From a virus (Duplodnaviria > Heunggongvirae > Uroviricota > Caudoviricetes): DNA of 64,000 nucleotides. Made by a program: the position numbers and the translations under genes. The stretch lies in the IMG/VR virus record IMGVR_UViG_2744054962_000001; one strand, given 5' to 3'. Under the pieces are notes generated by a model. That model had not been told where the DNA came from. It saw only the letters and a list, made by a program, of their open reading frames with translations, and did no database searches. Below, in pieces: positions 5,446 to 42,490 of this stretch. Each line of letters begins with the position of its first letter. The stretch's first letter is position 1.

Positions 5446-5460
5446 AAAACAATTTGTTTT
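5446..5460. promoter_or_regulatory. Palindromic operator-like site AAAACAATTTGTTTT
   Basis: Perfect 15-bp palindrome; first copy of the repeated AAACAAnTTGTTT family. Confidence 0.5.
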
Positions 5461-5478
5461 CTACCTTTTGTTGATTGA

Positions 5479-5515: not shown

Positions 5516-5764
5516 ATGAAGATGTTTGGAACAGCAAAAGAAATCATCGAGAAACTGAAAAACTATCCAGAAGACGAACCCTTACTCATGGTTATGTGGC
5601 ACAAAGAAGATATTGCTGAAGTAAGGACAGATCTCACTGATGAACAATGCGTACAGGTGATGCAAAAAATCAGACAATGCCATAACGCTGATGTCGGCGT
5701 TAATTGGGAGGTTATATCAACTACGGCGAATGAGTTGTTTCCGAACGAGGTGGTAAAATGCTGA
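5516..5764 (+). CDS. Hypothetical early protein (82 aa)
   Basis: ORF with AGGAG RBS; start 5516 or 5522. Confidence 0.5.
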   Translation: MKMFGTAKEIIEKLKNYPEDEPLLMVMWHKEDIAEVRTDLTDEQCVQVMQKIRQCHNADVGVNWEVISTTANELFPNEVVKC

Positions 5765-5946
5765 AACTCACCAAATTGTATAAGACGACAGTTAGTAGCC
5801 CTACCCTCGTTACACAGCATGACTCTGAGTGTCTACCAAATATCTGTTTCGAGCACCATACGATCTCGGACTCAATTGGGTACAGAAACGGAGTATGGGG
5901 GAGTCAGGGGAGGGAAGAAAAGCTGCGTGATTACGGTGTCACATAG
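5758..5946 (+). CDS. Hypothetical small protein (62 aa)
   Basis: ATG overlaps upstream stop (ATGCTGA), suggesting translational coupling; no recognised domain. Confidence 0.3.
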   Translation: MLKLTKLYKTTVSSPTLVTQHDSECLPNICFEHHTISDSIGYRNGVWGSQGREEKLRDYGVT

Positions 5947-6058
5947 CAAACCATCAAGAACATTCGAAAGGTGCTCGATGTAGGATTTGATGCGGTACAA
6001 TTCCACCCTGACGCTGAAATAGACGATGGTCTGGAAAATTGGAAATTGTGAGGGATAA

Positions 6059-6457
6059 ATGAAATATGCACCATTGGCACTAATATTTTTTGTGCTTTCT
6101 GCTAATGCCACGCCAGTTGAAGAGCCTAACACTATCGTGTACCCACGATGCATGAAAATAGATCCGGAAACACACAAGCAATTACCTGGTTACAATATTG
6201 TTATGGATATAGGGAATAAATTTAAAATCGTTTCCCCAAATGGGAATTCGGTGATATCCATCTCGCTTGCCCAAAGTGAAAAAGATAGGAACATGTTCGA
6301 CGCCTCAGTCGGCGATGTTTACTTCTCTCGTTACCATGTTCAACCTGATGGGAACTTTCTATACTCAGCCTGGAGTGAAAAGGCGAAAGTTACAGTGCTG
6401 TGTAATGGTAAAAGCGGTGAGCGGCATTACGTTGACCCTATTCATTTCGAGAACTGA
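6059..6457 (+). CDS. Hypothetical exported protein with N-terminal signal peptide
   Basis: MKYAPLALIFFVLSANA-TPVEE signal-peptide-like N-terminus; GAGGG RBS. Confidence 0.6.
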   Translation: MKYAPLALIFFVLSANATPVEEPNTIVYPRCMKIDPETHKQLPGYNIVMDIGNKFKIVSPNGNSVISISLAQSEKDRNMFDASVGDVYFSRYHVQPDGNFLYSAWSEKAKVTVLCNGKSGERHYVDPIHFEN

Positions 6458-6589
6458 CTACACAAGTAAACAAATCAATCAGTTGATAATGGCGGTCACA
6501 ATTTGATTCTTTTCTATAAGAATCCGTTGATCGCCACTACTCCCCTTCCATACCTGCAATCACATCCTTAAATATCAATAAGTTATGGT

Positions 6590-7370
6590 TGTTTATACAA
6601 ACAAGAAAACAACTGAATAACAGATCAACGAAACGTCAATGCTTTCTCCCGATTTGGTCTAAAAAATTGACGTTTTCACACATCACTTCTTATACCCGTA
6701 ATTCTACGCAGCATATAGCGCCACAGCGTCCAAATTTCACCACAGACGACCCAACACACTACCAACAAAAACACACGCTCAAAATCGCTCCCGTTGCGTT
6801 ACACAACCATATAAACAACTTATTTTCAGGCATAACAAAACAACTAAATAACACACATGCCATTCCCCAAAACAACCAACCTCTTTATGGCAGGCTACCG
6901 AAAAGACCCACCTCTTCTCCCCAGGCTACCGGACAACCAACCTAACTTTCACAGGCAATCCGAAAACATTCATACGCGCGATACCCACGACACGCCATTC
7001 CCCAAACAGCGAAGAAACACCAGAATCACTGAAACCCCAACGAAGCCTGTAACAGCAAGGTTTCTCTCAATCCCAAAAGACACGAAACATAACAATCACG
7101 GGAAACGCCATTACCCAATACACGAATAACTACAAAAGCCCTTCACACTACAGACAAACAACTCAAACACAATAACGAAAGGAATCGCCCACCTGCCATT
7201 ACTCCATACACGGAGAAGAACAATCACCAAAACGACGAGAACACCCCATAGAAGAACCACCGCAAAACTAACGAAACCACATACACCGACAGGGAAAACA
7301 ACACACCCAATTCACCAACAGAAATAGTCGCCGTATAGAACGTTCTGGAAGGAGTGAGCATTAACGCCTA
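6590..7370 (+). other. A+C-rich, G-depleted stretch with no credible ORF (candidate untranslated RNA / Rho-loading region)
   Basis: Top strand dominated by A and C with CAA/ACA/CCAAC motifs; ORF-track ORFs here translate to low-complexity P/T/Q/N-rich peptides. Confidence 0.55.
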
Positions 7371-7537
7371 TAGAGAGGTTGAGACAGATAAAACACGAAG
7401 AAAACACAACATGTATAGCGAAGAAGCCAGGTATGTATAAGTGGGGAGGGAAGGAGGGGTGTCGCCTCCTTTTTCGTATTTATTCAACTCCTGATTTTAT
7501 CCCCCGTAACACCCCTACGGTCAGCCTTCGGTCCATA

Positions 7538-7676
7538 CAGGGAAAAGGTTGCATCCCGCTACAGAAACGGCTGGGTTGCCTTCGGGGAACGGCTGGAGGT
7601 TTTCAGGGAAACGGTCGAGTTGCCTGTGTGGATTTCGGGAAAAGGCTCGATGCCGGTTCAGGAACGGCGGCGTACC
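7538..7676 (+). repeat. Array of six direct repeats (iterons), consensus approx GGGAAACGGCTGGGTTGCC
   Basis: Six copies at roughly 21-32 bp spacing: 7538, 7562, 7583, 7604, 7636, 7659. Confidence 0.7.
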
Positions 7677-7987
7677 GGTATAGCGTGAGGGAGAGTTGCG
7701 GCTACCCACCTGTAATGTGCGGGAAGAAGAGAGGCGCTCACGTGCAGGCGAACTTACTTACCGCTGGATTCCCTCTGAATGCCCAGCTACAGCGTAATTG
7801 TGCCAGACAGCCAACGGGTCACAATCGATTTCAGTAGGTTTTCGGGGAGAGGATTATTCTGCCCACCAGCCACCTTCGGCCACTAAATCAGAATAATGTA
7901 AAAAGTGTACTCGATACTGAACCTGAAAACTCACTGCCAAAACAACATTCACCGGAATAAAATCCTTTTTCGCCTGTGCGTTATTGC

Positions 7988-8019
7988 GATAATAACACCA
8001 ACGAGAAAACAAGTTGTTT
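7988..8019 (+). promoter_or_regulatory. Conserved early promoter/operator (GATAATAACACCAACGAGAAAACAAGTTGTTT)
   Basis: One of four near-identical 32-bp copies (7988, 8471, 10126, 10610) ending in the AAACAAnTTGTTT palindrome; upstream of ATG 8032. Confidence 0.6.
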
Positions 8020-8031
8020 AAGGATTGCTTT

Positions 8032-8361
8032 ATGTTTGCAAATATCGACATCAACCAAATCAAGAAATTAACTCAAAAAGAGTTTGATCAGTTTTATGAG
8101 TTAGAAGGTTGGTCTTCCACTCTGATTAATTCAAGATGGGTGCTGGAGCTGATGACTCGTGATGACGCACCTGCTTTGATGATTTGCGACATGGGTGAAG
8201 ATGCTGACTTTATGGATATGAGCGAATTTTGTGTGGACACATACAACCGCAGCCAGAAGTACTACTTCACATGCGATAGCGAAAATGACGTGATTTCTAA
8301 GGTCTATCTTCACCTCGTCCAGCATTGGGACGTTCAGGAGTTTCTTGAGGTATTCGCGTAA
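8032..8361 (+). CDS. Hypothetical early protein (109 aa)
   Basis: ORF track 8014..8361; ATG 8032 preferred (AAGGA RBS, downstream of operator). Confidence 0.55.
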   Translation: MFANIDINQIKKLTQKEFDQFYELEGWSSTLINSRWVLELMTRDDAPALMICDMGEDADFMDMSEFCVDTYNRSQKYYFTCDSENDVISKVYLHLVQHWDVQEFLEVFA

Positions 8362-8470
8362 TCCCAACCAAAGCCAGCAATGCTGGCTTAATTTCTCTAT
8401 AGCCGCAGGGAGGAACCTGCATATCGATCATGCACCTGATCATTATGCTTTGTAGCCGTTTTCTTACTGG

Positions 8471-8503
8471 TATTATTTACGCCATTGAGAAAACAAGTTG
8501 TTT
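8471..8503 (+). promoter_or_regulatory. Conserved early promoter/operator copy
   Basis: TATTATTTACGCCATTGAGAAAACAAGTTGTTT upstream of ATG 8515. Confidence 0.6.
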
Positions 8504-8514
8504 ACGGAGTTGTG

Positions 8515-8826
8515 ATGAAAAAATCATTGGTTCTTGGTCTGGACAAAGACCAGAAGAGAAAAGAGAAGCCTGCGCTGGTTGCTCAATTAACTTTGCTGGA
8601 CATCGTTGCCAATGGAACCTCTATTCGTCTGTTCCGTGAAACAGCGGTGTCTTTCGATAAAAACACCTTTACTCGTTATGTAATGAATGTTCGTCGCCAG
8701 CGTGGAAAAGGCTGGATGGCATTTCAAAGAATGTGGCCGGAACATCAGCTCGAACTGGCTTTGATGGAAGTTAACCGCGTGGCCCAGCAAGAAATTCAGA
8801 GAGCATCAGTGATGGCAATAGCCTGA
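8515..8826 (+). CDS. Hypothetical early protein (103 aa)
   Basis: ORF track 8485..8826; ATG 8515 lies after the operator. Confidence 0.55.
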   Translation: MKKSLVLGLDKDQKRKEKPALVAQLTLLDIVANGTSIRLFRETAVSFDKNTFTRYVMNVRRQRGKGWMAFQRMWPEHQLELALMEVNRVAQQEIQRASVMAIA

Positions 8827-8861
8827 TAATGTGCAAGTGGTAATTAGTCGACCGTACGACA

Positions 8862-8889
8862 GCCCCGCCATCCTTACGGGGCTTTTTTT
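8862..8889 (+). terminator. Rho-independent terminator
   Basis: GCCCCG..CGGGGC stem followed by TTTTTTT. Confidence 0.6.
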
Positions 8890-8953
8890 GTATTGTAAGT
8901 ACATACTTACGATCATAGAATATAAAAATAACCAATACACTACGGAGAGTGAA

Positions 8954-9349
8954 ATGACCGTTAAACGCGAAAAACTGACAGTTGATGTTTACTATGCCTC
9001 TGAAACCGCCGAAGGTAAGAATGTGGCAAAAATCACCGTTGTTACGTACAACACCGAAACTGGTGCCGAAGTCCAGGCCAGTACGATCGTGCGTAAAGGT
9101 GATGCCTCCGGCGGCGAGTACGCGACTCAATACCAGTCCATTCTCGATGCAACTGACCCGCTGCTGCTGAAAATCGAGAACTACTTCCGCCAGGTTGATG
9201 AGGAGGTGTTTGAAACCATGATGAATATGGTTAACACCGTATTCGCCTCCAGCCTGAATACCAACACTACCTGGATTGGTCAGTACGGCCTGCGCATTAC
9301 CTCCGGCATTCCTGCTGACACCTTAATCCCTGAAAGCGTATTCGCTTAA
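8954..9349 (+). CDS. Hypothetical protein (131 aa)
   Basis: ATG 8954 with GGAGAG RBS; upstream part of track ORF 8831..9349 overlaps the terminator. Confidence 0.55.
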   Translation: MTVKREKLTVDVYYASETAEGKNVAKITVVTYNTETGAEVQASTIVRKGDASGGEYATQYQSILDATDPLLLKIENYFRQVDEEVFETMMNMVNTVFASSLNTNTTWIGQYGLRITSGIPADTLIPESVFA

Positions 9350-9361
9350 TCCTCTTTGAAT

Positions 9362-9385
9362 GGCGCGTAAACCGCGCCATTTTCT
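9362..9385 (+). terminator. Rho-independent terminator
   Basis: GGCGCGTAAACCGCGCC hairpin followed by ATTTTCTT. Confidence 0.55.
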
Positions 9386-9392
9386 TATGCCC

Positions 9393-9408
9393 GATAACAA
9401 TTTGTTTT
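9393..9408. promoter_or_regulatory. Operator-like palindrome (GATAACAATTTGTTTT)
   Basis: Near-perfect member of the AAACAAnTTGTTT family. Confidence 0.45.
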
Positions 9409-9466
9409 CTGCCTTATCTGATTTGTGAAAATGATTTCACTGAAGCAACTTAATAAGGAAACCATC

Positions 9467-9841
9467 ATGGGACTTGATATCTATATCGAGACACAGCCTA
9501 AAAACGATCTGAATAACGAGGCATCCAGAAAGCAGGTTGCTTACTTCCGTAAGTTCAATGCGCTCGTTGGGTGGATGGAGCGCAACGTAGGTGAAGTCGA
9601 AAATTGTGAGCTTTTAGAATTAACGATGAATGACATTTGTTTTCTGAAGGCTCATTTGATGCACATAAACGAAAGTAATTGCGAAGAGTACTTGCCTACC
9701 CGGGAAGGTTTTTTCTTCGGCAGTCAGGAGTACGATGAAGGTTACTGGCATGATGTGGGGCAGTTGAAAGAGCTTGTGGAAGATCTGATTAAGAACCACG
9801 ACTTTCACAATAACAGACTGACCTTCTGCGCCTGGTGGTAA
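9467..9841 (+). CDS. Hypothetical protein (124 aa)
   Basis: ATG 9467 with AAGGA RBS (track ORF starts 9425). Confidence 0.5.
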   Translation: MGLDIYIETQPKNDLNNEASRKQVAYFRKFNALVGWMERNVGEVENCELLELTMNDICFLKAHLMHINESNCEEYLPTREGFFFGSQEYDEGYWHDVGQLKELVEDLIKNHDFHNNRLTFCAWW

Positions 9842-9844
9842 ATA

Positions 9845-9988
9845 TGGGCGATTTCAAGAAACGCCTGAAGGAAAGAGCCGAGATGGTCAGAAAGCAAAAC
9901 GCCTCTTCTGTCATCAGATACGCAAGGCAGTTTAGTCGCAACAACAAATCAGTTGAGGAAAAGATCCTTAGCGTAATCGGTCGATAAT
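9845..9988 (+). CDS. Possible small protein (47 aa)
   Basis: ATG 4 nt after upstream stop; below track size cut-off; no other support. Confidence 0.25.
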
Positions 9989-9992
9989 TATT

Positions 9993-10016
9993 AAGGCCAC
10001 CAGCATTGGTGGTCTT
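9993..10016 (+). terminator. Hairpin, copy 1 of repeated ATTAAGGCCACC..GGTGGCCTTAAATGAC element
   Basis: Inverted repeat AAGGCCACCAGCATTGGTGGTCTT; near-identical copy at 10464. Confidence 0.45.
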
Positions 10017-10125
10017 AAATGACTTTTAATAACCGAAGGTTAGTTTGAAACCTGGCTATCAACTTCCAGAACCTTTCTTGTGTATTCAGCCTGTATTAAC
10101 TTCTTTTATGCCTTATCTACACTGC

Positions 10126-10157
10126 GATAATTACACCAACAAGAAAACAACATGTTT
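10126..10157 (+). promoter_or_regulatory. Conserved early promoter/operator copy
   Basis: GATAATTACACCAACAAGAAAACAACATGTTT; lies inside track ORF 10045..10458, so the true start is downstream. Confidence 0.6.
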
Positions 10158-10176
10158 ACGCAGTGAGGATATGCTC

Positions 10177-10458
10177 ATGACTGATTTCACCATTACCCCT
10201 AAAGCACAAAATGTATTCCTTGAATCATGGCTGGACTTGCCGGAAACAGAACAGCAAGAAATGGATCATGTGGATTATGACGAGCAGGTAAGCACGCGAT
10301 TCTTCCACTTTGAGGGATGCGTTTACGACATTGCCGACTTCATGCGAGATGACCGCTTCCCTGAATGGCACGCAAGCTATCCACTAAACGCCTTTGCCAT
10401 GCTGATGATCCGTGTGGATGATTCAGGGGATACCATCGACATCGGTCTGCTCCACTAA
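10177..10458 (+). CDS. Hypothetical early protein (93 aa)
   Basis: GAGGA RBS 7 nt before ATG 10177. Confidence 0.5.
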   Translation: MTDFTITPKAQNVFLESWLDLPETEQQEMDHVDYDEQVSTRFFHFEGCVYDIADFMRDDRFPEWHASYPLNAFAMLMIRVDDSGDTIDIGLLH

Positions 10459-10463
10459 AGATT

Positions 10464-10487
10464 AAGGCCACCAATGCTGGTGGCCTT
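10464..10487 (+). terminator. Hairpin, copy 2 of repeated element
   Basis: Perfect palindrome AAGGCCACCAATGCTGGTGGCCTT followed by AAATGAC. Confidence 0.5.
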
Positions 10488-10497
10488 AAATGACCAT

Positions 10498-10572
10498 CCT
10501 GTTTCCCGCAGGCTAAAAACACCAACCTCTTACCTCCAGGCAACCGACAAACCCACCTGTTCCCGTCCGGCT
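10498..10572 (-). repeat. Iteron-like repeats in reverse orientation (CCTGTTTCCCG..)
   Basis: CCTGTTTCCCGCAGGC and CCTGTTCCCGTCCGGC contain the reverse complement of the GGGAAAC core; CAGGCTACCG-type motifs shared with 6893-6960. Confidence 0.45.
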
Positions 10573-10609
10573 ACCGCAACTTTCCACTTTGACGCCTTAT
10601 TCGTACAAC

Positions 10610-10641
10610 GATAATTAACACCAACAAGAAAACAATATGTT
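10610..10641 (+). promoter_or_regulatory. Conserved early promoter/operator copy (degenerate palindrome)
   Basis: GATAATTAACACCAACAAGAAAACAATATGTT upstream of ATG 10663. Confidence 0.5.
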
Positions 10642-10662
10642 ATTTACGATAAGGAATTAATC

Positions 10663-11145
10663 ATGAATTTTATCGCTACTGTAAACGCACCCGCACATGG
10701 CAATATCGCTGTAACGTTCTCTGACATTGAAAAACGAGTACTTGGTGCATGGCGCGACAATGAGACGGTAGAACTGTCAGCACAAGAAAAATGCATTATT
10801 GCACGCGACATCATTGGCAATCGTCGTTACTCGCGGGTATTTGAGAAAGCGTATGTGGTAAATTCTGGATTCGGAACGTTCGTCTTTCCGGTGCGCTCCG
10901 GGCGATTCTGCCAGTCCAAGCTGATTGAGTTCGCTACGCAGATTTCTGTCTGGATTAAAACTCAATCGTCGTTCAAATTTTCCGACGATGAAGCAGTATC
11001 GCAGGGGATGCGGATCGCCAACAATGCGATTAAATGCAAAAACATTACGTATACCGCTGGCGTTGATACATGGAAACTGTTTTGCGCTAACTTTATGCTG
11101 AATGTATACGCAAGCAACCGCATCCACATCCTTGATGGCGTGTAA
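10663..11145 (+). CDS. Hypothetical protein (160 aa)
   Basis: ORF with AAGGA RBS; followed by hairpin GGGCCAGAAACGGCCC. Confidence 0.55.
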   Translation: MNFIATVNAPAHGNIAVTFSDIEKRVLGAWRDNETVELSAQEKCIIARDIIGNRRYSRVFEKAYVVNSGFGTFVFPVRSGRFCQSKLIEFATQISVWIKTQSSFKFSDDEAVSQGMRIANNAIKCKNITYTAGVDTWKLFCANFMLNVYASNRIHILDGV

Positions 11146-11154
11146 CTGAGAAGA

Positions 11155-11275
11155 GGGCCAGAAACGGCCCTTTCTCTATAGCCACCAGCTGCCTCAGGGA
11201 AATTTTCAGAAACGGCGAGGAACGTATTCATAAGCCGACGGGAAACGGCCAGGATTTTTTCGGGAAACGGCTGCA
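11155..11275 (+). repeat. Second iteron cluster (GAAACGGC core, at least 4 copies)
   Basis: CAGAAACGGCCC, CAGAAACGGCGAGG, GGGAAACGGCCAGG, GGGAAACGGCTGCA. Confidence 0.55.
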
Positions 11276-11724
11276 TTCGCCTTTATGTAGAAAAAACATC
11301 GGGAAGCTGGTGGAATCCAACCAGCGGTTGTCGGACAGGTGAGCGGGGAAAATTATGATGACTTTCGTCACCTGAGACATCCAGATTTCTTTCGTAGCGT
11401 AATCACATACGTGATTAAGTGGTGTGATTATGTGAAAAATCACGCGCACATAATACGCGAGCGGATACAGAACAACACAAAATGCCGATCCGCGCCGACA
11501 AATAAACGCGGATCACATAGCAAGAATAAAAGCCAATGATTAGCCATACACCATAACGCAATATAACGCGATTTAAGCGCGTTAATGCGCTAAGTAATGG
11601 GTATGTACTGGTAAGGATATAAAAGCGCGTCTATGGCGTTATTTTGGCGCTTATTTTTATGTTGTTGGTGTGAGTCAAAGACAATAAAAAACGCGCTAAT
11701 GATGGCGCGTTATGGTGGGAGTAT

Positions 11725-11755
11725 TGGAAACGAAAAAAGCGCCCATAGTGGGCGC
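11725..11755 (-). terminator. Rho-independent terminator (hairpin GCGCCCATAGTGGGCGC, copy 1)
   Basis: 17-bp palindrome at 11739-11755 followed on minus strand by T-run; just after stop of 11762..11992. Confidence 0.65.
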
Positions 11756-11761
11756 TCGATT

Positions 11762-12039: not shown

Positions 12040-12690
12040 TTACGCTTTGAAAGCATCAGCCAGATAGTTATAGAAATCATTTTTAATAAAGCGATATTGC
12101 TGCGTACCAGCTTTTGCGCTTCCCATTCCTTTGACTTTCTCAACAAGTCCAAGACGTTCGCAAAGATTGATAAGCTGGTTGGCTTGAGTGTATCCTGCGT
12201 CTAATTTTATTTCGTTGGCTTTTTTCGCTTCATTCATTAAATCGAAAACAGCTCCATTTGTGAACGTCTCGATCTCGTCGTTAATCATATCGATTAATGC
12301 GAATACACGAGATCCGGACATATCAGCGACGGAATAAACACACTTTCCAGCTTTAATGGATTTAACCAGATAAACCAGTTTTTCCAGAGAATAACTATTA
12401 GTCATTGCATCACGGAAAAATACTTCTGGCGCTTGTTTGCTTGCTTTGATCGCATAGTAGAAAACAGAGCATAATTTTTCGTCTTCTACTGCGTTTACGA
12501 CGTTGTTGATGAAGTAAGCAAGTTTGGTGGTTGCAGCTTGCATATTTGCTTTGTCTGCTTTTGTGTGCGTACCATTTTTATAATGTTCGTTATATGTTTG
12601 AGTTGCCAGATCTGCTTTTTCGCGCAGCTCGTCGGATACAATGGCAGCAGCTTCAATGATGGACTTTTTAGAAATGATAATGTTAGCCAT
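12040..12690 (-). CDS. Hypothetical protein (216 aa), AT-rich island
   Basis: Start moved to ATG 12690 (AAGGA RBS, 8-nt spacer) from track start 12699. Confidence 0.6.
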   Translation of the reverse strand: MANIIISKKSIIEAAAIVSDELREKADLATQTYNEHYKNGTHTKADKANMQAATTKLAYFINNVVNAVEDEKLCSVFYYAIKASKQAPEVFFRDAMTNSYSLEKLVYLVKSIKAGKCVYSVADMSGSRVFALIDMINDEIETFTNGAVFDLMNEAKKANEIKLDAGYTQANQLINLCERLGLVEKVKGMGSAKAGTQQYRFIKNDFYNYLADAFKA

Positions 12691-12985
12691 GATGGACATC
12701 CTTACGAAAAATTAAAATGAATTTATTTTTTACTGTCGTTAGCCAGCTCGCTTTCGACGAGTTCAATTATCAATACGTGAAAAAAGATTGCAAGTGTTTT
12801 TTTTAAATATTCTGCAGGGATGAAAGTCCTAGAAATAAAAGCGAGATCGTCGAAGGTGTTCCCTAAATAAATAATCAATTCGGGCCTTTAACCTTATATA
12901 TTTATACGGGGTGGCATTGAAAGAGTTTTAAATGAATGGCATGTAAAATAATAACCGGACTTAGCCGGTTATTACCCTTATAGAT

Positions 12986-13510
12986 TTAAAATGGAAGGAT
13001 TCGTTCAACCCAATCGAAGAAAACAAGTATTTTTCTGCCGTCTTCTAACTTAAGAGTGACCTGGCAAGCATCAACGCCTCTTGACACCCCTTCTATTTCA
13101 CGACCGTCTGTCATGTAGACCCTTATAGATTGGTCGTTTTGATAAGCCTTGCGACATATCGCAAAAAAGTCACGGCGTGATGGCTGATTGTCAACATAGT
13201 CTGGATGTATTGTTAGCCTACCTTTGAACTCGCGAGCAATGCCATCGATTACACCTGATTCAATTGTGCTAATGCGCTCAAGTGGGAGTCTTATACGATT
13301 TTCTTTATCATATGGAATCGGGCATAAATCTAGCTTATTGCGTGAAGGCATTGTCCCCTGAACGTACATGCAAAACACCTGACCGTCTTCAAGCGTGACT
13401 CTTACAGGAATGTTGTTCTTCCGCCAGAACATAAGTATGTTCTCAGCATGTTCGTAGTCTCGCGGCCAGACTTCAGCCGGTATGCCGTAGGTGATGTCCA
13501 ATGTTCTCAT
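12986..13510 (-). CDS. Hypothetical protein (174 aa), AT-rich island
   Basis: Stop overlaps upstream gene by 4 nt (coupled); no recognised motif. Confidence 0.55.
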   Translation of the reverse strand: MRTLDITYGIPAEVWPRDYEHAENILMFWRKNNIPVRVTLEDGQVFCMYVQGTMPSRNKLDLCPIPYDKENRIRLPLERISTIESGVIDGIAREFKGRLTIHPDYVDNQPSRRDFFAICRKAYQNDQSIRVYMTDGREIEGVSRGVDACQVTLKLEDGRKILVFFDWVERILPF

Positions 13511-14106
13511 TCTGATACTCTTAGAGGTGTTTTCAGCAACCCAAATTTAAATTCTTTGTTACCAACGACAAAGAAGGGAACCTCAACATAGATTTTTTTA
13601 TCGACGGATTTAGAGTTAGCTGTTTTCTGTATGTCACGAACGATACGTTTTGAGATATTTTCATCGATAAACAATACCTTTCCACTTGTATTCCCTTCAG
13701 CCTTGGCGTAAGTAACGATAGGCTCTTCATTGCCAACCCTAATGTTTACTTGGCAACCTGTTGTAGCCATTTCATCACAGTAAAGTGTGCCGTCTTGAAC
13801 TTCTAAAACAATTCCAGATGGCTTCATGGCTTCGTCAGAGCTTACATTAACGTTTTCTGGTACAGCGGTCCCGTTAATTTGCAACCGTAATCTTTCTTTT
13901 CCTCCATTAAGTATTGTTTCTTCTGCGTTGTCTGAGAATCTGAACCAAACTGGCTGATTCAGACCTCGTGATTTGTATTCTACTACGTCTTCGGAGGTAA
14001 ACATGCTGTACGTTTTTTGCATGTCATAGACGAAATCTGATAATGCGTTGGCGGAAAACGCCGGGAGGTATATACAAGCAAGGAGTAACGAAAGTTTCAT
14101 TTTCAT
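13507..14106 (-). CDS. Hypothetical exported protein (signal peptide), AT-rich island
   Basis: Track start 14121 is TTG; ATG 14106 gives MKMKLSLLLACIYLPAFSANA, a signal-peptide-like N-terminus. Confidence 0.5.
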   Translation of the reverse strand: MKMKLSLLLACIYLPAFSANALSDFVYDMQKTYSMFTSEDVVEYKSRGLNQPVWFRFSDNAEETILNGGKERLRLQINGTAVPENVNVSSDEAMKPSGIVLEVQDGTLYCDEMATTGCQVNIRVGNEEPIVTYAKAEGNTSGKVLFIDENISKRIVRDIQKTANSKSVDKKIYVEVPFFVVGNKEFKFGLLKTPLRVSE

Positions 14107-14121
14107 ATCATGATAATCCAA

Positions 14122-14610
14122 TTATTTAACATCACACTTTCTAAGTTTTTCTATTTGTTCTAATTTTTCATGATCATCATTTAGATTTCCTTCGACTATC
14201 TCCGTTTCAAGTTTGCTGATTAGCATGTTAAGTGCGTTGTAGTTATTGCATTTTACTTTGTAGGCGTAGTATGACCTTGTCCCTGGTTTTTGTACACCCA
14301 TATCATTAAAGTTAGAGCTTAAAGTATAACCTTCAAGTTCAACCCCTTTTATTGTAGGAAGAATTATATTTAATGGTTCTAATTTAAATGGGTAGATATA
14401 AATATGTGATATGAAGTACTCTTCTGAAGAGATTTTCTTCATGTCTTTTGTGATTGAAACTGAATATTTACGGTTCCGAGTGATATAAAATTTTGTACAT
14501 TTGTACGGCTCTAAGTTGAATAGATAATATTTTTCTTTAAAAAGAACATCTTTTCCATGTGATATTTTATGTCGTAAAGAGTTAATTATTTTGTTTATAG
14601 AAATACTCAT
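14122..14610 (-). CDS. Hypothetical protein (162 aa), strongly AT-rich
   Basis: K/N/I/Y-rich composition; abuts downstream gene. Confidence 0.5.
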   Translation of the reverse strand: MSISINKIINSLRHKISHGKDVLFKEKYYLFNLEPYKCTKFYITRNRKYSVSITKDMKKISSEEYFISHIYIYPFKLEPLNIILPTIKGVELEGYTLSSNFNDMGVQKPGTRSYYAYKVKCNNYNALNMLISKLETEIVEGNLNDDHEKLEQIEKLRKCDVK

Positions 14611-14720
14611 CTACAGTATCCGACCTTAGTTATCAATTGAAAAGCCTACAAATATCGTTCAGCCAATCAAGAAATTTTTTCAGCCGGAGGTGTGTGCTTC
14701 AAAAAATGTGATGAATGTCA

Positions 14721-17270: not shown

Positions 17271-17293
17271 ATAATAAGTAAGTGATTACTTAG
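17271..17293. promoter_or_regulatory. ATAAGTA-family motif (palindromic TAAGTAA-GTGA-TTACTTA) in divergent promoter region
   Basis: Between helicase (-) and ParB-like operon (+); member of repeated ATAAGTA motif family. Confidence 0.5.
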
Positions 17294-17310
17294 TGGATTG
17301 TAGCAATAAA

Positions 17311-17991
17311 ATGGATGTAAAAATCACGATTTTGCAGGTTGATGTTGCCAACCTTCGCCCGAATACCTGGAACACCAATTCGGTTGGTGCGCAGAATTTT
17401 GAAAAACTGAAAGGTTCTATCGAAAAATTGGGCTTTTTTAAGCCAATTTTGGCTCGTGAACTTGAAGATGGATTTTTTGAAATCCTCGGCGGCGAACATC
17501 GCTGGCGTGCCGCTATTGAGCAAGGAATTTCAACGGTTCCAGTGCTTTCTGTGGGCAAAATTAGCGATGTCGTAGCTAAACAGATGTCACTGGTGGACAA
17601 CGAGCGATACGGTGAAGACGACCAAATCGCATTGCAACGCTTCATTGAAGAAATTCAGTCAGAACTTGACTATCAACTGTCTGAAATCGCCCCGTATGAC
17701 GACGAAATCTCGATGGTTTTAGCAAAAGAGGCGGCAATCGACCTTGAAGCACTGGAGGCGTTGTCTCGTGGTAGTGATGAGCCTGTCGATACCGACAAAC
17801 GAGAGAAAACCGAACGTGTGGGGGCGGAACATCAGACCATGCGCTTCAAAGTAACTTTCGATGCGTCAGATCGCGTTGCAGAAACCATAAAAAACATCAT
17901 CAAAGAGCAGGCTATTAACACCGGTAATGAAATGGAGAACGCTGGTGAGGCTCTGGTGTGGCTGGTCGACTACTACAAGGAGCGTATGTAA
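17311..17991 (+). CDS. ParB-like nuclease-domain protein 1
   Basis: ParB/Srx-type N-terminal domain (GGEHRWRAA); ATG 17311 preferred over track GTG 17293. Confidence 0.65.
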   Translation: MDVKITILQVDVANLRPNTWNTNSVGAQNFEKLKGSIEKLGFFKPILARELEDGFFEILGGEHRWRAAIEQGISTVPVLSVGKISDVVAKQMSLVDNERYGEDDQIALQRFIEEIQSELDYQLSEIAPYDDEISMVLAKEAAIDLEALEALSRGSDEPVDTDKREKTERVGAEHQTMRFKVTFDASDRVAETIKNIIKEQAINTGNEMENAGEALVWLVDYYKERM

Positions 17992-18659
17992 TGACCAAAA
18001 AGTTTGAAATCGTATATCGCGACCCGGCAGATCTTATTCCCTATGAGATGAATGCCAAAAAGCATGATGAACAGCAGATCCGAGATCTAGCCGCAGCCAT
18101 TAAAAAGCGCGGATTTGACCAGCCAATTACGGTCGATAAGAACGACGTAATTATTACTGGCCACGGCCGCCGTGAGGCTGCAATTTTTGCTGGACTTGAG
18201 CGCGTACCGGTTATTGTTCGCGATGATCTCAGTGATGACGAGGTTCGTGCGAAGCGCCTTGAAGATAACCGACTTGCCAGCATTGATTACGATGCAATTA
18301 AGCTACAGAAAGAGCTTGAGTCGCTTGTTCTGGACGATATCGAGGTTTTCGGCTTTGAAGAGCGTGAGTTGAATGTTCTCGTTGGCAGCATGACAGAAGA
18401 AATGGACACCGACTCGCTAGTTATCGATCTTGGCGAAGAAACTAAACGACAGAAGGATGAACACACCGAGATCAGTCGTGAAGTTGCAGCGGAAGAAGTA
18501 CGTGTTGTCGACGTATTGGGCTTTAAAACGCTTCCTGCTGGCTCTGCCATTGTTGTTGGTGATTTGCTTGCCCACATGGAAGAAATGACGGGAGAAAGCG
18601 GGGTAGACGCATTTGTGGCATATGCGGAGAAGATCTCTTCCGGGGAGATGGCTGCATGA
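17958..18659 (+). CDS. ParB-like nuclease-domain protein 2
   Basis: Second ParB-type N-terminal domain (ITGHGRREAA); overlaps upstream gene by 34 nt; acidic C-terminal half. Confidence 0.6.
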   Translation: MAGRLLQGAYVMTKKFEIVYRDPADLIPYEMNAKKHDEQQIRDLAAAIKKRGFDQPITVDKNDVIITGHGRREAAIFAGLERVPVIVRDDLSDDEVRAKRLEDNRLASIDYDAIKLQKELESLVLDDIEVFGFEERELNVLVGSMTEEMDTDSLVIDLGEETKRQKDEHTEISREVAAEEVRVVDVLGFKTLPAGSAIVVGDLLAHMEEMTGESGVDAFVAYAEKISSGEMAA

Positions 18660-38236: not shown

Positions 38237-41200
38237 ATGGAACAGTTCAAGAAGAAAAAGCTACCGCTGTTTATTGCCGGTGCGGGTGGTAAAAAAAGCA
38301 GCAAAAGCTCCAGCCGTACACCGGTTGAAGCCGACGATACCGTAAATTCTCGTGCAATGGCCGCTATCCTCGATCTTCTTGGGGAAGGGGTAATTGGCGG
38401 CTTAGTAAATGGCGCAAGATCTATTTTTATCGACGATCTGCCGATTGTAAATGAAGACGGTTCCTCCAACTTCAGCGGAATCACATGGGATTTTCGCGAC
38501 GGTTCACAAGACCAGACTCCAATGTCTGGCTTTGATTTCGTTGAAACGCCTAAATCCGTCAATATCCAGTTAAAAAAAACACATTATGTAACGGTTTCAA
38601 TCGATAACGATGAAGCTGATCGGGTTCGTGTCATCATGAAGTTTCCTTCTTTGCGAAGCATAGATAAAAAAACTGGTGACACGAACGGTACGACTGTTGA
38701 GTACAAGTTCCAGATAGCAAATGGCGACTCAACATTTGTAGATGTGGTCGCTGAAGGTGAAAAAAGCGTTGGCATTAAGCTAACAGCAAAGAAGACCGGC
38801 GTTTATTACCGTAGCTATGAGCTGAAGCTGCCTAAGCCTGGACGAGCATACAAGGTTCGTGTGGTCCGTATTACCGATGATAACAGCAGCCAGTATCTCT
38901 ATAACGATACATGGGTGGACTCAATAGGTGAGATTGTAGATACACCGATGAACTACCCAAACTCTGTGCTGGTGGGTCTGAAGGTTAATTCTGAGCAGTT
39001 TGGTAGCACCATGCCATCTCGTTCGTATTTGGTACGTGGATTAAAAATTCGCGTGCCGTCAAACTACAACGAGGCCAGCAACACTTATGATGGTGTATGG
39101 GATGGCACTTTTAAGCTGTTGTCTTCTTCAAACCCCGCGTGGATTCTCTTTGATTTGCTGACCAATGCTCGATATGGCCTTGGTCAGTATGTGTCGGAAT
39201 CTATGATTGACCTTGGCCAGTTGTACCAGATTGGTCGATATTGTGACGAAGAGGTCGATGATGGCTTTGGTGGCAAAGAGAAACGCTTTGCAATCAATAC
39301 GCAGATCACCAGTCGACAGGACGCATACCGGCTAATTCAGGATATTGCCGGAGCATTCCGCGGCATGGTGTTTTGGGCTGGTGGGATGGTTAACATCATG
39401 CAGGATAGCCCATCAGATCCGGTAATGATGTTTACCAACTCTAACGTCAAAGATGGATTGTTTACCTATAAAGGTTCTGCGCGTAAAGATCGCCCATCCG
39501 TTGCGCTCGTAACCTACAACAACAAGGAGGACGGTTATAAGCAAAACATCGAGTACGTTGAAGATCAGGACGCAATGCGCCGTTATGGTGAGCGTAAGAC
39601 AGAAGTCGTAGCATTTGGCTGTACAAGCCGAGGCCAGGCCCACCGAGTTGGTTTATGGCTTTTGTATACAGCCAGAATGGAGTCGGATGTAATTACATTT
39701 ACTGCCGGCTTAGATGCGTCATTCCTGATGCCTGGTGAAACCGTTCTGATTCAGAACAAATATCGCGCAGGCAAACGTAACTCAGGTCGAATTGTGGCGT
39801 TTACCAAAAACAGCGTCACACTCGATGCGCCTGTGTCGTTAGCCAAAGGCGGCTGCTTTATTCGAATACTGAATCAGGAAGGCAAAATCGTTGAACGCGA
39901 TGTTCTTGAAACTGGCGAAAATATAACAAAAGTTACGTTTTCAAAAGCCCTGTCTTCTGCTGAAACGCCTGTTTTGAACGGCGTCTGGACTATTACAGAA
40001 CCAGATCTCGAACCTATGCGCGTTCGCATTGTTAACATAGCACAGGGGGAAACGCCGGGTAGCTTTGACATCACCGCTGTTGAGAACAATCCGTCTAAAT
40101 ATGAGGCGATCGATAATGGTGCAACGCTTATCCCGCAGAATACGACGGTATTGGACCCGACTTATTCCAAGCCGTCTAATTTGCAAATCACTGAAGGGAC
40201 TTATCTCTCAAGCCCGGGCAACCTGTCAGTAAAACTGACTGCAACATGGGAAGGGAAATCTCCAGAGTATTGGATCAGTTGGCGACGTTCTGATGCAAAC
40301 AATGTATCGAACTGGCAATCGGCGCGTGTAACCGAAGAGCAATACGAAATCGTTAATGTCGCGGAGAATGGACGCTACGACTTCCAGCTGTATGCGGTTT
40401 CATTCAACGGTAAAAAAACAGAGATTATCAGTACCGTTTATCAGGTGCTGGGCACAATGACACCGCCAGATGCCCCAACGTCATTAACGGCCGTTGGAGA
40501 CTATCGTAATGTGATACTGAATTGGGTTAATCCAGATTCGGTAGACCTTGATCACATTAATGTTTACGCATCCCAGACCAACAATCTGGATACAGCGAAA
40601 CTGATCGCAGAGTCTGCAAGCACCACCTTTACACATGCTGGTCTTGGGGATAGCGAAACGTGGTATTACTGGGTTCGTGCGTCAAACAAGCGCGGTATGT
40701 TGAGTCCTCCGAACTCAAACTTGGGTACAGAGGCGACGACTCGCGATGTGCTGTCGTTCCTGACAGGCAAAATTACGTCTTCTGAACTTGGCCAGACTTT
40801 ACTTGAGGAAATCGACTCAAAAGTATCTCAGGAGGCGGTGGATTCCATCTATCAACAGATGGAAGAAAGTCTGAAAATCCTCGATGACAAATTTACAGAT
40901 GCCGATCAGCGGCTTGAAGAAGCTCAAAACAATCTTAAAACGGAAGTTTCCGGTACTGTCAGCAAGGTGGAAGACGCACTTAAGGAGGTTGCAAACTCTA
41001 ACGCTGCCTTAATTCAGTTGCAGGAAACTGTATCAGAGCAGGGTAAAGCTGTAGCTGGAGCTGTTGAGGCGGCAAATGCAGCACTTGACAATTCATCGGC
41101 TTTAATTGCGGAGGAGCGTGAAGCACGAGTTGAGGGTGACTTGGCAAACGCGAAAGAAATCGAGGCGATGAAGTCAACTGTAGATAGCAGTTTAGCCACC

Positions 41201-42397
41201 ATTGAAGAAATGAAAAAAACCGTGGCTGAAGTTGAACGTTCTAGTGCCGAAGTTACGACAAACATTGAGGCATTGGCTAAAACAAACATCGATCTTGCTT
41301 TGCGTCAGGATGAAGATCAGCACAAGCAGATGGTGAGTAATGCGAAGATCACCACAACTCAGAAGGCTTTTGCAGACGATATATCTGCAATGGCTACGAA
41401 AATGGAGGAAATTCGCGCTGAAATAAATGAGGATATCAGAGCTTCAATCACTGAAGAAACAACGGCTCGTGTAGATGCTGATAATGCTATTGCAAGCAGA
41501 ATCACCAAACTTGAATCAAAGATTAACGATGATATTTCTGCCGCAATTGTGAGTGAACAAGAGGCACGAGCTAGTGCCGATGAAGCACTTTCAAAAGAAA
41601 TACTATCGTTACAAGCCAAAATTGAAGGCGATATTAGTGCAGCTATATCTGAAGAAAAAATTGCCCGAGCAACTGCTGATGAATCTTTAGCACAACAGAT
41701 AACCACATTGAAGAGCCAGACGGGTAAAGATATTAAGGCGGCTGTAGCAGAAGAGACGAAAGCCAGAACTGACGCTGATTCGGCTTTGGCTTCTAGCATC
41801 ACTAATCTACAGGCGCAAACGAGCAAAGATATTAATGCCGCGATTACGTCTGAGGCGACTGTGCGCACAAACGCCGACAATGCTCTAAGTGGACGAATTG
41901 ACACCTTAAAAGCATCAGTTGATGGAAATACAGCGACAATTCAAGAGCAGGCAACTGCTATTGCTGATACTAACAAAAAGGTTTCAACCGCGTGGACGTT
42001 GAAGATGGAAACGTCAACAAGTGGTGGGCAAAAATATGTCGCAGGTATTGCGCTTGGAATTGACACCACGGGGCTTTCCCAGTTTTTGGTGCAAGCAGAT
42101 CGATTTGGTCTAGTTAACTCAGTTAACGGAAAGATCACCACACCATTTGTTATCGAAAACAGCGTTGCATACATGAATGGTGCGTATATTAAGGATGGTA
42201 CTATCACAAATGCAAAGGTAGGTGACTTGCAATCAACAAACTTCGTAAGCGGACGAGCCGGATGGCGATTTGGTAAAAATGGAACGCTTGAGATCAACGG
42301 CAATAGTGGCGGCAATGGGAGATTGGTTATAAATGGTCAGAGGATTGACGTTTATGATGACAATAATGTCCTTCGAGTGAGGATTGGTCGGCTTTGA
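38237..42397 (+). CDS. Host specificity / central tail fibre protein (lambda gpJ-like)
   Basis: ~1386 aa after K/I genes; C-terminal ~20-aa coiled-coil repeat series. Confidence 0.9.
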   Translation: MEQFKKKKLPLFIAGAGGKKSSKSSSRTPVEADDTVNSRAMAAILDLLGEGVIGGLVNGARSIFIDDLPIVNEDGSSNFSGITWDFRDGSQDQTPMSGFDFVETPKSVNIQLKKTHYVTVSIDNDEADRVRVIMKFPSLRSIDKKTGDTNGTTVEYKFQIANGDSTFVDVVAEGEKSVGIKLTAKKTGVYYRSYELKLPKPGRAYKVRVVRITDDNSSQYLYNDTWVDSIGEIVDTPMNYPNSVLVGLKVNSEQFGSTMPSRSYLVRGLKIRVPSNYNEASNTYDGVWDGTFKLLSSSNPAWILFDLLTNARYGLGQYVSESMIDLGQLYQIGRYCDEEVDDGFGGKEKRFAINTQITSRQDAYRLIQDIAGAFRGMVFWAGGMVNIMQDSPSDPVMMFTNSNVKDGLFTYKGSARKDRPSVALVTYNNKEDGYKQNIEYVEDQDAMRRYGERKTEVVAFGCTSRGQAHRVGLWLLYTARMESDVITFTAGLDASFLMPGETVLIQNKYRAGKRNSGRIVAFTKNSVTLDAPVSLAKGGCFIRILNQEGKIVERDVLETGENITKVTFSKALSSAETPVLNGVWTITEPDLEPMRVRIVNIAQGETPGSFDITAVENNPSKYEAIDNGATLIPQNTTVLDPTYSKPSNLQITEGTYLSSPGNLSVKLTATWEGKSPEYWISWRRSDANNVSNWQSARVTEEQYEIVNVAENGRYDFQLYAVSFNGKKTEIISTVYQVLGTMTPPDAPTSLTAVGDYRNVILNWVNPDSVDLDHINVYASQTNNLDTAKLIAESASTTFTHAGLGDSETWYYWVRASNKRGMLSPPNSNLGTEATTRDVLSFLTGKITSSELGQTLLEEIDSKVSQEAVDSIYQQMEESLKILDDKFTDADQRLEEAQNNLKTEVSGTVSKVEDALKEVANSNAALIQLQETVSEQGKAVAGAVEAANAALDNSSALIAEEREARVEGDLANAKEIEAMKSTVDSSLATIEEMKKTVAEVERSSAEVTTNIEALAKTNIDLALRQDEDQHKQMVSNAKITTTQKAFADDISAMATKMEEIRAEINEDIRASITEETTARVDADNAIASRITKLESKINDDISAAIVSEQEARASADEALSKEILSLQAKIEGDISAAISEEKIARATADESLAQQITTLKSQTGKDIKAAVAEETKARTDADSALASSITNLQAQTSKDINAAITSEATVRTNADNALSGRIDTLKASVDGNTATIQEQATAIADTNKKVSTAWTLKMETSTSGGQKYVAGIALGIDTTGLSQFLVQADRFGLVNSVNGKITTPFVIENSVAYMNGAYIKDGTITNAKVGDLQSTNFVSGRAGWRFGKNGTLEINGNSGGNGRLVINGQRIDVYDDNNVLRVRIGRL

Positions 42398-42427
42398 TTG
42401 TGGAAAAAAATAATCATTTCTGTAAAA

Positions 42428-42469: not shown

Positions 42470-42490
42470 ATATCTAGGAGCAAAGGATAA

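Follow-up and report, generated by a model that had tools for sequence, protein, structure and literature searches.

Split clusters of iterons have precedents in incC/incA of P1 and in ori and crr of the satellite phage-plasmid P4, where the alpha protein, a primase-helicase, binds octamer iterons with its C-terminal domain and loops them. Phage regulators bind comparable arrangements: the palindromic operator triplets of lambda OL and OR overlap promoters, with sites about two turns apart, and form a looping pair that brackets the immunity region over 2.4 kb; P2 Cox and 186 Apl recognize in-phase direct repeats one turn apart, one set being located at attP. All three involve two distant loci, to which a single small phage protein binds cooperatively. 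Short direct repeats arrayed on one DNA face are also typical of the parC, parH and tubC centromeres, where the phasing lets the binding protein form a continuous array.

Here we describe two repeat arrays in a window of 64,000 nucleotides (IMG/VR record IMGVR_UViG_2744054962_000001), which is a pLF82/"Cyrano"-like phage-plasmid of the SSU5 type; no description of them was found in the literature searched. As in the Rep iterons of P1 incC/incA and RepFIB, the repeats are asymmetric, direct, in one orientation and about 22 bp apart, and they form two clusters with genes between them, as in theta plasmids and plasmid prophages. Unlike typical iterons, which are conserved over 17-22 bp, they have a core of 9-13 bp and unrelated spacers, no Rep_3 or other Rep-family gene between or beside them, and no GATC cluster. 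With P4 ori/crr they share two clusters of one short asymmetric motif, a few kb apart, in a phage able to live as a plasmid, whereas the helicase and primase lie more than 40 kb away and nothing ties them to the motif. The two distant loci, the sites about two turns apart and the bracketing at a similar distance recall lambda OL/OR, and the in-phase direct repeats at two distant loci recall the Cox and Apl arrays. However, the sites are asymmetric and overlap no clear promoter, unlike those of lambda, and they are far from the integrase and spaced by two or three turns rather than one, unlike those of Cox and Apl. The short, phased direct repeats in two blocks also resemble R1/pB171 parC, TP228 parH and pBtoxis tubC, but they adjoin no par operon.

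Results

The motif comprises a T-tract followed by GGGAAACGGC, repeated every two helical turns in two clusters. Array 1 (7540-7667, plus strand) contains six phased sites matching G[GA]AA[AC]GG, with the 9-mers GGGAAAAGG at 7540, CAGAAACGG at 7562, GGGGAACGG at 7584, GGGAAACGG at 7606, GGGAAAAGG again at 7637 and CAGGAACGG at 7659. Their spacing is 22/22/22/31/22 bp and their consensus (T-rich)-c-R-GGGAAAMGG-C-tgg, in agreement with the six direct repeats that a first-pass annotation had placed at 7538-7676. The same annotation counted at least four further copies at 11155-11275, and here three sites and a half-site stand. Array 2 (11195-11272, plus strand) consists of a conserved half-site, CAGGGAAAT (11195-11203), and three conserved full sites, CAGAAACGG (11207-11215) and two copies of GGGAAACGG (11240-11248 and 11262-11270), with GAAACGG cores at 11209, 11242 and 11264 and 33/22 bp between full sites. 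A single site is thus a short asymmetric core, GRAAMGGC, preceded in the strongest copies by a T tract.

Several other candidates were rejected. The supposed opening copy of array 2 (11159-11167) belongs to a hairpin, the intrinsic terminator that follows a 160-aa gene (11155-11177, plus strand; GGGCC-agaaac-GGCCC-TTTCTCT, read by eye), and consists of its loop and 3′ stem. The automatic terminator scan did not list this hairpin, its tail having fewer than five T; in relatives this terminator reads GGGGCtggaaacGCCCC and the motif match is gone. Reverse-orientation copies had been proposed at 10498-10572, and these were not taken into the family: the minus-strand stretches in question (10499-10564) hold GGGAAACAG (10499-10507) and GGGAACAGG (10556-10564), only one-mismatch and two-mismatch matches. 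The latter is not conserved, and conservation of the former is uninformative because the entire surrounding intergenic stretch is conserved. Matches at 11299-11313 (GGGAAGCTGG) and 11345 (GGGGAAAAT) are degenerate and lack conservation.

Motif analysis for enrichment gave a divided answer. Over the whole window the motif is not enriched (32 matches observed against 33 expected, both strands), and allowing up to one mismatch to GGGAAACGG yields a marginal excess (21 against 11.7). The clustering, on the other hand, was never matched in 500 first-order Markov simulations, the densest cluster holding 6 matches in 140 bp against a simulated maximum of 3. A pattern-free repeat search recovered the motif families, and a scan of 107 kb of the 108-kb Cyrano genome found no motif clusters besides these two. 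Site positions are phased (resultant length 0.96-0.97 for a turn of 10.8 bp). In a set of 71 distinct arrays, 201 of the 219 spacings differ by no more than 2 bp from a multiple of 10.7, and 139 of the 219 are exactly 22 bp. TRF reported no tandem repeat at either array, even with a minimum score of 30, since the spacers are unrelated between units. Adjacent units are not similar over their whole length, as head-to-tail tandem repeats would be, and the arrays are spaced motifs rather than tandem duplications.

Motif arrays are conserved in hundreds of enterobacterial plasmids. In Salmonella pHCM2 and in relatives from Klebsiella, Enterobacter and Citrobacter, both arrays occur at the same place, on the same strand and with the same spacing, at a background nucleotide identity of only 63-75%, and the conservation of cores, spacing and orientation spans at least six genera. 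In 24 diverged sequences, core columns are 78% identical against 47% for spacer columns. Copy number differs among relatives by whole 22- or 44-bp units: array 1 has the same architecture in pHCM2, Citrobacter and Enterobacter and four sites in Klebsiella. Array 2 spacings of 34/22 or 33/22 occur in 33 distinct arrays from relatives, and Yersinia pestis pMT1 retains array 2 and has lost array 1. Phage SSU5 gives a blastn match to the array-1 region, at region level, with 71% identity over 93% of the query, and 63 of 66 IMG/VR loci with GGGAAACGG-N13-GGGAAACGG are SSU5-like. Even where the spacing is altered, divergent lineages keep the GAAACGG core; a C usually comes next, and in the clearest copies a T tract stands before the core. 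At core position 7 an A/C transversion is tolerated.

Between the arrays lies a variable cassette of small early genes, seven ORFans in this window (109, 103, 131, 124, 47, 93 and 160 aa; 8032-11145, plus strand). Both are present in 35 loci, always on the same strand around the cassette and 1.4-4.1 kb apart, with a minimal version in L028 and L037; the 103-aa and 160-aa genes are its only universal members. A repeated promoter/5′-leader element occurs once each at the 109-, 103-, 93- and 160-aa genes, promoter-like sequences of other kinds are present at the 131- and 124-aa genes, and several of the genes are followed by hairpin terminators. No convincing promoter overlaps either array, the nearest cassette promoter being about 300-390 bp from array 1, and each array is positioned just downstream of a terminator hairpin.

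Conserved non-coding DNA around the arrays is unusually long, about 1.5 kb before the cassette and 0.5 kb past array 2. BLAST conservation starts in all genera exactly at 7436-7480 (plus strand), where an invariant TATAAG and a GA-rich box (GGGGAGGGAAGGAGGGG) are found together with a hairpin that leads into a run of T; hairpin and run (7448-7474) are on the terminator scan list and are kept with some compensatory changes. Directly upstream of array 1 is a non-coding tract of about 0.8 kb, rich in A+C and poor in G+T (6600-7400, plus strand), with a GC skew of -0.40 to -0.54 over approximately 6600-7300, weaker toward 7400, and an AT skew of +0.25 to +0.64. Its composition is conserved and its sequence is not; pHCM2, Klebsiella and Enterobacter show the same bias, and K. 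quasipneumoniae has a similar tract, judged by eye. In composition the tract looks like a Rho-loading region, and in the LF82 lysogen its expression does not rise above the floor (PMC9928086). On the other side, the conserved non-coding stretch from array 2 to a convergent minus-strand operon (11273-11761) holds several minus-strand terminator-like hairpins.

That same side carries a weak candidate for the array binder, the 219-aa ORFan m219 (12040-12699, minus strand), the nearest one predicted to bind DNA. Its predicted fold has a helical hairpin at the N terminus and a winged helix at the C terminus; the winged helix resembles those of ORC/Cdc6, TubR and RTP, with fold matches that are not significant. 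Expression of m219 is at the floor in the LF82 lysogen (PMC9928086), so it cannot be a prophage-state silencer, and no array lies within 8 kb of the m219 homologue found in a Serratia relative.

The first-pass annotation had considered an origin or incompatibility locus. For the plasmid replicon this is not supported: the RepFIB-type RepA gene lies outside the window (Cyrano 60.1-62.4 kb, with RepA at 60.6-61.7 kb), in a region with DnaA boxes, GATC clusters and 21-bp-spaced iterons of its own, CTCTCTATAGTGGATA, which share nothing with GGGAAACGG. The remoteness from the DnaB-like helicase and primase, also remarked on earlier, carries little weight either way. Although the arrays have the orientation and the ~21-22 bp spacing of Rep iterons, searches of Pfam and PHROGs found no Rep family among ten flanking proteins, and the single predicted winged helix of m219 gave no significant match to a Rep. 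The conserved block of array 1 has no TTWTNCACA DnaA box and no IHF consensus, the sole IHF-like match being at 6573, about 1 kb upstream and to the left of the CA-rich tract; one weak DnaA-like box is found in the vicinity of array 2. Array 1 is GC-rich (0.59) and adjoins no AT-rich unwinding element; the nearest AT-rich DNA (GC 0.34, ~7900-8100) begins over 200 bp beyond it and is a gene promoter.

Discussion

Our preferred reading, held tentatively, is that the arrays are oriented, helically phased putative sites for one sequence-specific DNA-binding protein and that they exert paired control of the cassette. The phasing, the constant orientation, the conserved cores with free spacers and the persistence across genera support the earlier suggestion of iteron-like arrays that probably bind a protein at multiple sites, though not that of an origin or incompatibility locus of the plasmid replicon. 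The binder would be either a protein specific to the lineage of SSU5-type phage-plasmids or a host factor conserved in enterobacteria. Neighbouring sites two or three turns apart would place protomers head-to-tail on one DNA face, building a nucleoprotein array, and the two complexes may act jointly by pairing, by looping or as boundaries, thereby controlling the cassette and keeping flanking transcription out. The arrays would not serve the RepA replicon, and we infer protein binding with an output that is regulatory or architectural rather than replicative. An additional cassette regulator is not obviously needed, because the cassette promoters carry their own conserved palindromic leader element.

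The anatomy of the arrays fits an origin equally well, and a vegetative (lytic) origin, although rather unlikely overall, is the alternative that survives best. The arrays would be the iterons of another replicon, one that comes into use upon induction, by analogy with P1 oriL versus oriR and, as two cis elements, with P4 ori/crr; an unrecognised initiator, possibly the coiled-coil/winged-helix protein m219 encoded next to array 2, would bind them and recruit the DnaB-like helicase and primase of the element. Iterons are classically laid out as asymmetric direct repeats two turns apart; those here lie in long conserved non-coding DNA, and the element encodes a full replisome together with UvsW, UvsY, gp32-like and RecA-like proteins, yet its annotated functions include no assigned lytic origin or initiator. 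The silence of m219 in the lysogen is expected of a lytic function, and its predicted winged helix would suit an initiator, though the fold matches fall short of significance. The motif is moreover invariant across relatives with differing RepA sub-groups, as reported for two Cronobacter phage-plasmids (PMC9169379), which fits a function free of incompatibility selection. Against this stand the short core, the GC-rich array 1 with no adjoining unwinding element, the single weak DnaA-like box and the neighbouring proteins devoid of a Rep-family domain, and GC skew shows no inflection at the arrays. Natural variants with 3-6 sites persist, as does pMT1 after the loss of one array, which would be expected only of arrays that plasmid maintenance can do without.

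An element acting at the RNA level is improbable. The arrays would be transcribed within a long leader or read-through RNA and bound by a protein or an antisense RNA, for instance as a CsrA-type GGA sponge or as sites for the FljA-like/Hfq-like protein encoded at 12986-13510. Both have the sense orientation of the plus-strand genes around them, GGA or GGGA occurs in most copies, a gene for a post-transcriptional repressor of the FljA family is 1.7 kb away, and the invariant TATAAG 100 nt upstream of array 1 is a possible -10 element. However, terminator hairpins precede both arrays, GGA is missing from two window copies (CAGAAACGG), Rfam gave no match at E <= 1, the RNAalifold covariation term is unfavourable (+1.45) and the minimum free energy is no better than that of shuffles (z = +0.24). 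RNA-seq of the LF82 lysogen gives the array-1 'ORF' log2 values of 4.1 and 3.5, where the floor is 2.32 and RepA reaches about 7 (PMC9928086, S1 table), and expression of the region is only about two-fold over background. A strict spacing of two or three turns belongs to duplex DNA, not to RNA, and the A/C variation at core position 7, which would break pairing with a single antisense RNA, fits protein read-out better than base pairing. Since this evidence opposes an RNA role, a role at the DNA level is favoured.

A partition centromere appears distinctly improbable. The arrays would be sites for the partner of a type Ib ParA (48915-49583, with a 119-aa neighbour) or for two ParB_N proteins (17293-18659), remote from the par genes as in the phage-plasmid N15. 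Their short one-face repeats are of the parC/parH/tubC type, parA has no repeat array beside it, and TubR is among the best, non-significant, fold matches of m219. Yet 37-41 kb separate the arrays from parA, and another candidate centromere is the perfect 13-bp palindrome that immediately follows the ParA operon (49941-49970). Furthermore, pMT1, which we take to partition by a P1/P7-type ParAB-parS system, still has array 2 in unaltered form and has lost array 1; the presence of the motif therefore does not follow the type of partition system.

Finally, that the arrays are functionless, whether chance or decaying repeats or a by-product of local G-rich composition, is extremely improbable: the flat window-wide count and the TRF result would agree with it, but the simulations never reached the observed clustering, and the comparative data already effectively refute it, with cores, spacing and orientation held while the spacers drift.

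Two phased arrays border the early cassette

The six direct repeats that the first-pass annotation placed near 7538-7676 are confirmed: array 1 (7540-7667) has six matches to G[GA]AA[AC]GG, all on one strand, spaced by 22, 22, 22, 31 and 22 bp. Of the repeats it assigned to a second cluster (array 2, 11195-11272), plus-strand GAAACGG cores stand at 11209, 11242 and 11264 (spacings of 33 and 22 bp), preceded by a conserved half-site CAGGGAAAT; the supposed copy at 11159 belongs to the 160-aa gene's terminator, as its loop and 3′ stem, and relatives show no motif match there. Nor were the copies in reverse orientation (10499 and 10556) upheld: both are imperfect, one is not conserved, and the other lies in intergenic DNA that is conserved from end to end.

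The motif shows no enrichment window-wide (32 matches against 33 expected), but its clustering was never reached in simulations: array 1 holds 6 matches in 140 bp, and the maximum in 500 first-order Markov simulations was 3. A one-mismatch search with GGGAAACGG gave a marginal excess only (21 versus 11.7 expected), and repeat finding recovered the motif families without any pattern being supplied. A tandem-repeat reading was discarded, since TRF reports none at the arrays, their spacers being unrelated. Besides these two, no motif cluster was found in the 107 kb scanned of the 108-kb genome of Escherichia phage Cyrano, the closest phage record.

The window sites share one helix face, with a resultant length of 0.96-0.97 at 10.8 bp per turn. 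Across 71 distinct arrays, 22-bp spacings were counted 139 times, 31-bp 20 times, 33/34-bp 33 times and 48-bp 13 times, and 201 of the 219 spacings deviate by no more than 2 bp from a multiple of 10.7. Because the two- and three-turn spacing is strict and an A/C transversion in the core is tolerated, the arrays are taken as duplex-DNA sites, and we treat them as presumably read by a protein.

Conservation among SSU5-type phage-plasmids

Cyrano (OV696614) is the pLF82 plasmid of E. coli LF82, and window 7300-11500 shares 98.7% identity with it; window 7.4-11.3 kb corresponds to about 95.2-99.0 kb in Cyrano. Ciprofloxacin induces Cyrano about 39-fold (PMC9928086). More than 700 PLSDB plasmids from Escherichia, Klebsiella, Enterobacter, Salmonella (pHCM2), Citrobacter, Cronobacter and Yersinia (pMT1) match this part of the window. 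These plasmids are non-mobilizable almost throughout, with IncFIB typing in all five records inspected. From the Cyrano/pLF82 identity and the plasmid matches we identify the element, judged by sequence, as an SSU5-type phage-plasmid. Such elements abound in clinical Escherichia, Klebsiella, Salmonella, Enterobacter and Citrobacter, with resistance genes on some of them; to our knowledge, only their RepA replicon has been described so far. Window segments 1-1640, 5516-6467, 13499-14641, 40814-46262, 49946-51165 and 54693-57254 gave no megablast alignment to Cyrano, and the remainder is 96-99% identical to it; this alignment makes the element a mosaic relative of pLF82 in which accessory modules have been replaced.

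Both arrays are kept in pHCM2 and in Klebsiella, Citrobacter and Enterobacter plasmids, with position, strand and spacing unchanged, at 63-75% nucleotide identity, and the array-1 region of phage SSU5 matches at 71% identity. In Y. pestis pMT1, array 1 is gone, beside an IS1541 insertion, and array 2 is intact. An exact IMG/VR scan for GGGAAACGG-N13-GGGAAACGG returned 66 loci, 63 of them aligning to the window; the three outside the SSU5 lineage contain no motif cluster. Wherever a locus includes both arrays (n = 35), these lie on one strand, 1.4-4.1 kb apart, and the cassette content between them is variable, with the 103-aa and 160-aa genes always present. Among 32 distinct aligned array-1 sequences, the 24 diverged ones show 78% identity to the window in the cores versus 47% in the spacers, and site copy number among array-1 relatives changes by whole units. 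Deeper relatives (L076, L079 and L080) retain the GAAACGG core despite changed spacing, usually with C next on its 3′ side and, in the clearest copies, a T tract 5′ of it.

Genes and non-coding DNA around the arrays

Array 1 is set in a non-coding region of about 1.5 kb that comprises, from left to right, an A+C-rich tract, an invariant TATAAG, a GA-rich box, a hairpin with a T run, and the array. On its gene strand, the tract (window 6600-7400, about 0.8 kb) is rich in A+C and poor in G+T, with GC skew down to -0.54 and AT skew up to +0.64, and it resembles a very long Rho-loading (rut) region. Its composition is conserved in relatives and its sequence is not (K. quasipneumoniae was judged by eye); sequence conservation has a sharp left limit at TATAAG. 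Counterparts of about 0.8-1.2 kb occur in related loci (L005 100-1000, L006 6000-6900, L008 6000-6900 and, on the reverse strand, L076 12700-14400), the AT skew reaching +0.8 in one relative. CYRAN_103, a 118-aa ORF annotated in the tract, looks spurious. The conserved GA-rich box (7443-7459) contains a match to the KOPS (FtsK-orienting) consensus GGGNAGGG, reading GGGGAGGG here and GGGAAGGG in relatives, perhaps by coincidence in G-rich DNA.

A coding repeat at array 1 was considered and rejected: the Cyrano CDS CYRAN_104 (window 7433-7837, 134 aa) is probably an annotation artefact. Since four relatives have no PGAP gene call at this place and the natural deletions of 22-bp units would shift the frame, array 1 is treated as non-coding. 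In published RNA-seq of the LF82 lysogen, expression of this 'ORF' is about two-fold over background, and that of the A+C-rich tract does not rise above the floor (PMC9928086, S1 table).

The cassette between the arrays (8032-11145) consists of seven small ORFan genes, four with a repeated promoter/leader element and several followed by hairpin terminators. Array 2 stands behind the last of these terminators and is followed by about 0.5 kb of conserved non-coding DNA and then a convergent operon on the minus strand, with genes for a 76-aa protein, the ORFan m219, a FljA-family repressor and a UvsW-like helicase. The non-coding stretch between the convergent operons (11273-11761, about 490 bp) contains four or more terminator-like hairpins on the minus strand (11757-11737, 11711-11690, 11515-11486 and 11459-11443) and an inverted repeat, ATTATGTG/CACATAAT, and may be a source of small minus-strand RNAs.

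Candidate binding proteins

Pfam and PHROGs searches with 28 neighbouring and replication-region proteins returned only FljA-like (PF03614), ParA, ParB_N, ABC-type ATPase and a sub-threshold YmgB match. The 103-aa cassette protein was rejected as an obvious helix-turn-helix binder, its AF2 model (pLDDT 80) comprising four beta strands and a helix with no PDB match. A weak candidate is m219 (219 aa, 12040-12699, minus strand), predicted to combine a helical hairpin with a winged helix, several residues of the predicted third helix and wing being invariant. It is 63-97% identical across relatives (52-54% in one K. quasipneumoniae lineage), and a search of 1.8 billion protein clusters gave 23 representatives and no relative beyond the SSU5-type lineage. 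Expression of m219 is at the floor in the LF82 lysogen (PMC9928086, S1 table), and therefore any binding to the arrays would fall in lytic growth. This low expression counts against m219, as does a Serratia element that encodes a 63% identical homologue and has no array within 8 kb; the binder could also be a conserved host protein.

Possible functions of the arrays

Full-text searches (SSU5, pHCM2, pMT1, pLF82, iterons and the motif string) returned no description of the arrays; the only iterons that they found described are RepA-proximal (PMC6735626). We rate the arrays as previously undescribed phased repeats with predicted protein binding, a conserved pair that would mark an undescribed cis-acting control element. 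One possible function is that of the missing lytic origin, another that of a device for looping or boundary formation that governs a fast-evolving early-gene cassette whose products possibly serve host takeover or anti-defence; either function would explain the switch of SSU5-type elements between plasmid and phage. The motif, of roughly 13 bp, offers a precise handle for experiments on these elements.

Our leading reading, a tentative one, is that the arrays seed nucleoprotein complexes bracketing the early cassette, where the bound proteins would pair or act as boundaries. The arrays sit exactly at the cassette borders, each directly 3′ of a terminator hairpin and the upstream one also behind the Rho-loading-like tract, and this placement fits such complexes.

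It is possible, if doubtful, that the arrays instead belong to a second, vegetative origin, the pair being likened to P4 ori and crr as the two cis elements of one replicon. The iteron-like layout and the long non-coding setting speak for this, as do an element with its own replisome and no assigned lytic origin, and the presumed lytic-phase expression of m219. Host-type origin signatures (DnaA, IHF, GATC) are uninformative or negative, the AT-rich stretch closest to array 1 lies more than 200 bp past it, and whole-genome GC skew is monotonic and uninformative. A more specific version, which we consider rather unlikely, would make the arrays ori- and crr-like elements of an unrecognised vegetative replicon common to all SSU5-type phage-plasmids (pHCM2, pLF82, pKPHS1-like elements and pMT1 remnants), with m219, read as a coiled coil joined to a winged helix, as founder of a new initiator family that loads the element's DnaB-like helicase at an origin without DnaA boxes; a lytic origin with a new initiator family would add to the interest of the finding.

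A partition centromere is unlikely, given the 37-41 kb between the arrays and the type Ib ParA operon and the presence of the same motif in pMT1, whose partition system is presumably of the P1/P7 type. The ParA locus contained neither repeats of its own nor array repeats. A perfect 13-bp inverted repeat (AATAATGTGGGCT / AGCCCACATTATT, 4-nt gap, 49941-49970) starts in the final bases of the 119-aa gene behind parA and may represent a terminator or, alternatively, a candidate centromere.

Action at the RNA level is unlikely: the arrays have no Rfam match at E <= 1, the covariation term of RNAalifold is unfavourable over six diverged sequences, and the RNA fold of the single sequence is no more stable than shuffles (z = +0.24), its DNA fold being negative as well. 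Nor is a plasmid origin or incompatibility locus, among the options of the first-pass annotation, supported, for the arrays have no Rep gene nearby, no DnaA or IHF site and no resemblance to the real RepA iterons. The RepA initiator of Cyrano lies at 60.1-62.4 kb, in a part of the genome absent from the window, flanked by unrelated iterons spaced 21 bp (CTCTCTATAGTGGATA), DnaA-box-like TGTGGATAA sequences and GATC clusters.

Chi sites, a recurrent leader element and the FljA homologue

Chi (GCTGGTGG) occurs 18 times in the window versus 1.4 expected by chance, for example at 7863(-), 9997(-), 10476(+), 11182(-) and 11306(+). Two copies fall within the stems of near-identical terminator hairpins (9991-10018 and 10462-10489), and a convergent pair flanks array 2, the left one (CCACCAGC) being conserved in pHCM2, Klebsiella, Citrobacter and Enterobacter.

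The leader element AAGAAAACAANNTGTTT, with the palindrome AAACAA/TTGTTT, has 15 occurrences at up to 2 mismatches versus 0.6 expected, among them 5447-5463(-), 5494, 8003, 8487, 9395(-), 10141, 10626, 13017, 15641(-), 20600, 20625, 48863 and 52090. It lies shortly upstream of cassette genes, terS (20682), parA (48915) and the DnaB-like helicase gene (52126), and ends directly 5′ of the Shine-Dalgarno sequence in the copies checked; it looks like a genome-wide operator or a translational operator. A candidate partner is the FljA-like RNA-binding repressor (12986-13510, minus strand, 174 aa; PF03614, E = 9e-81), whose C-terminal part gives an Hfq-like match below threshold. FljA is the post-transcriptional repressor of phase-1 flagellin. 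Nearly all relatives for which the region was fetched, pMT1 included, retain the homologue; in LF82 its log2 expression is about 4 in LB and climbs to about 8 within macrophages (PMC9928086, S1 table).
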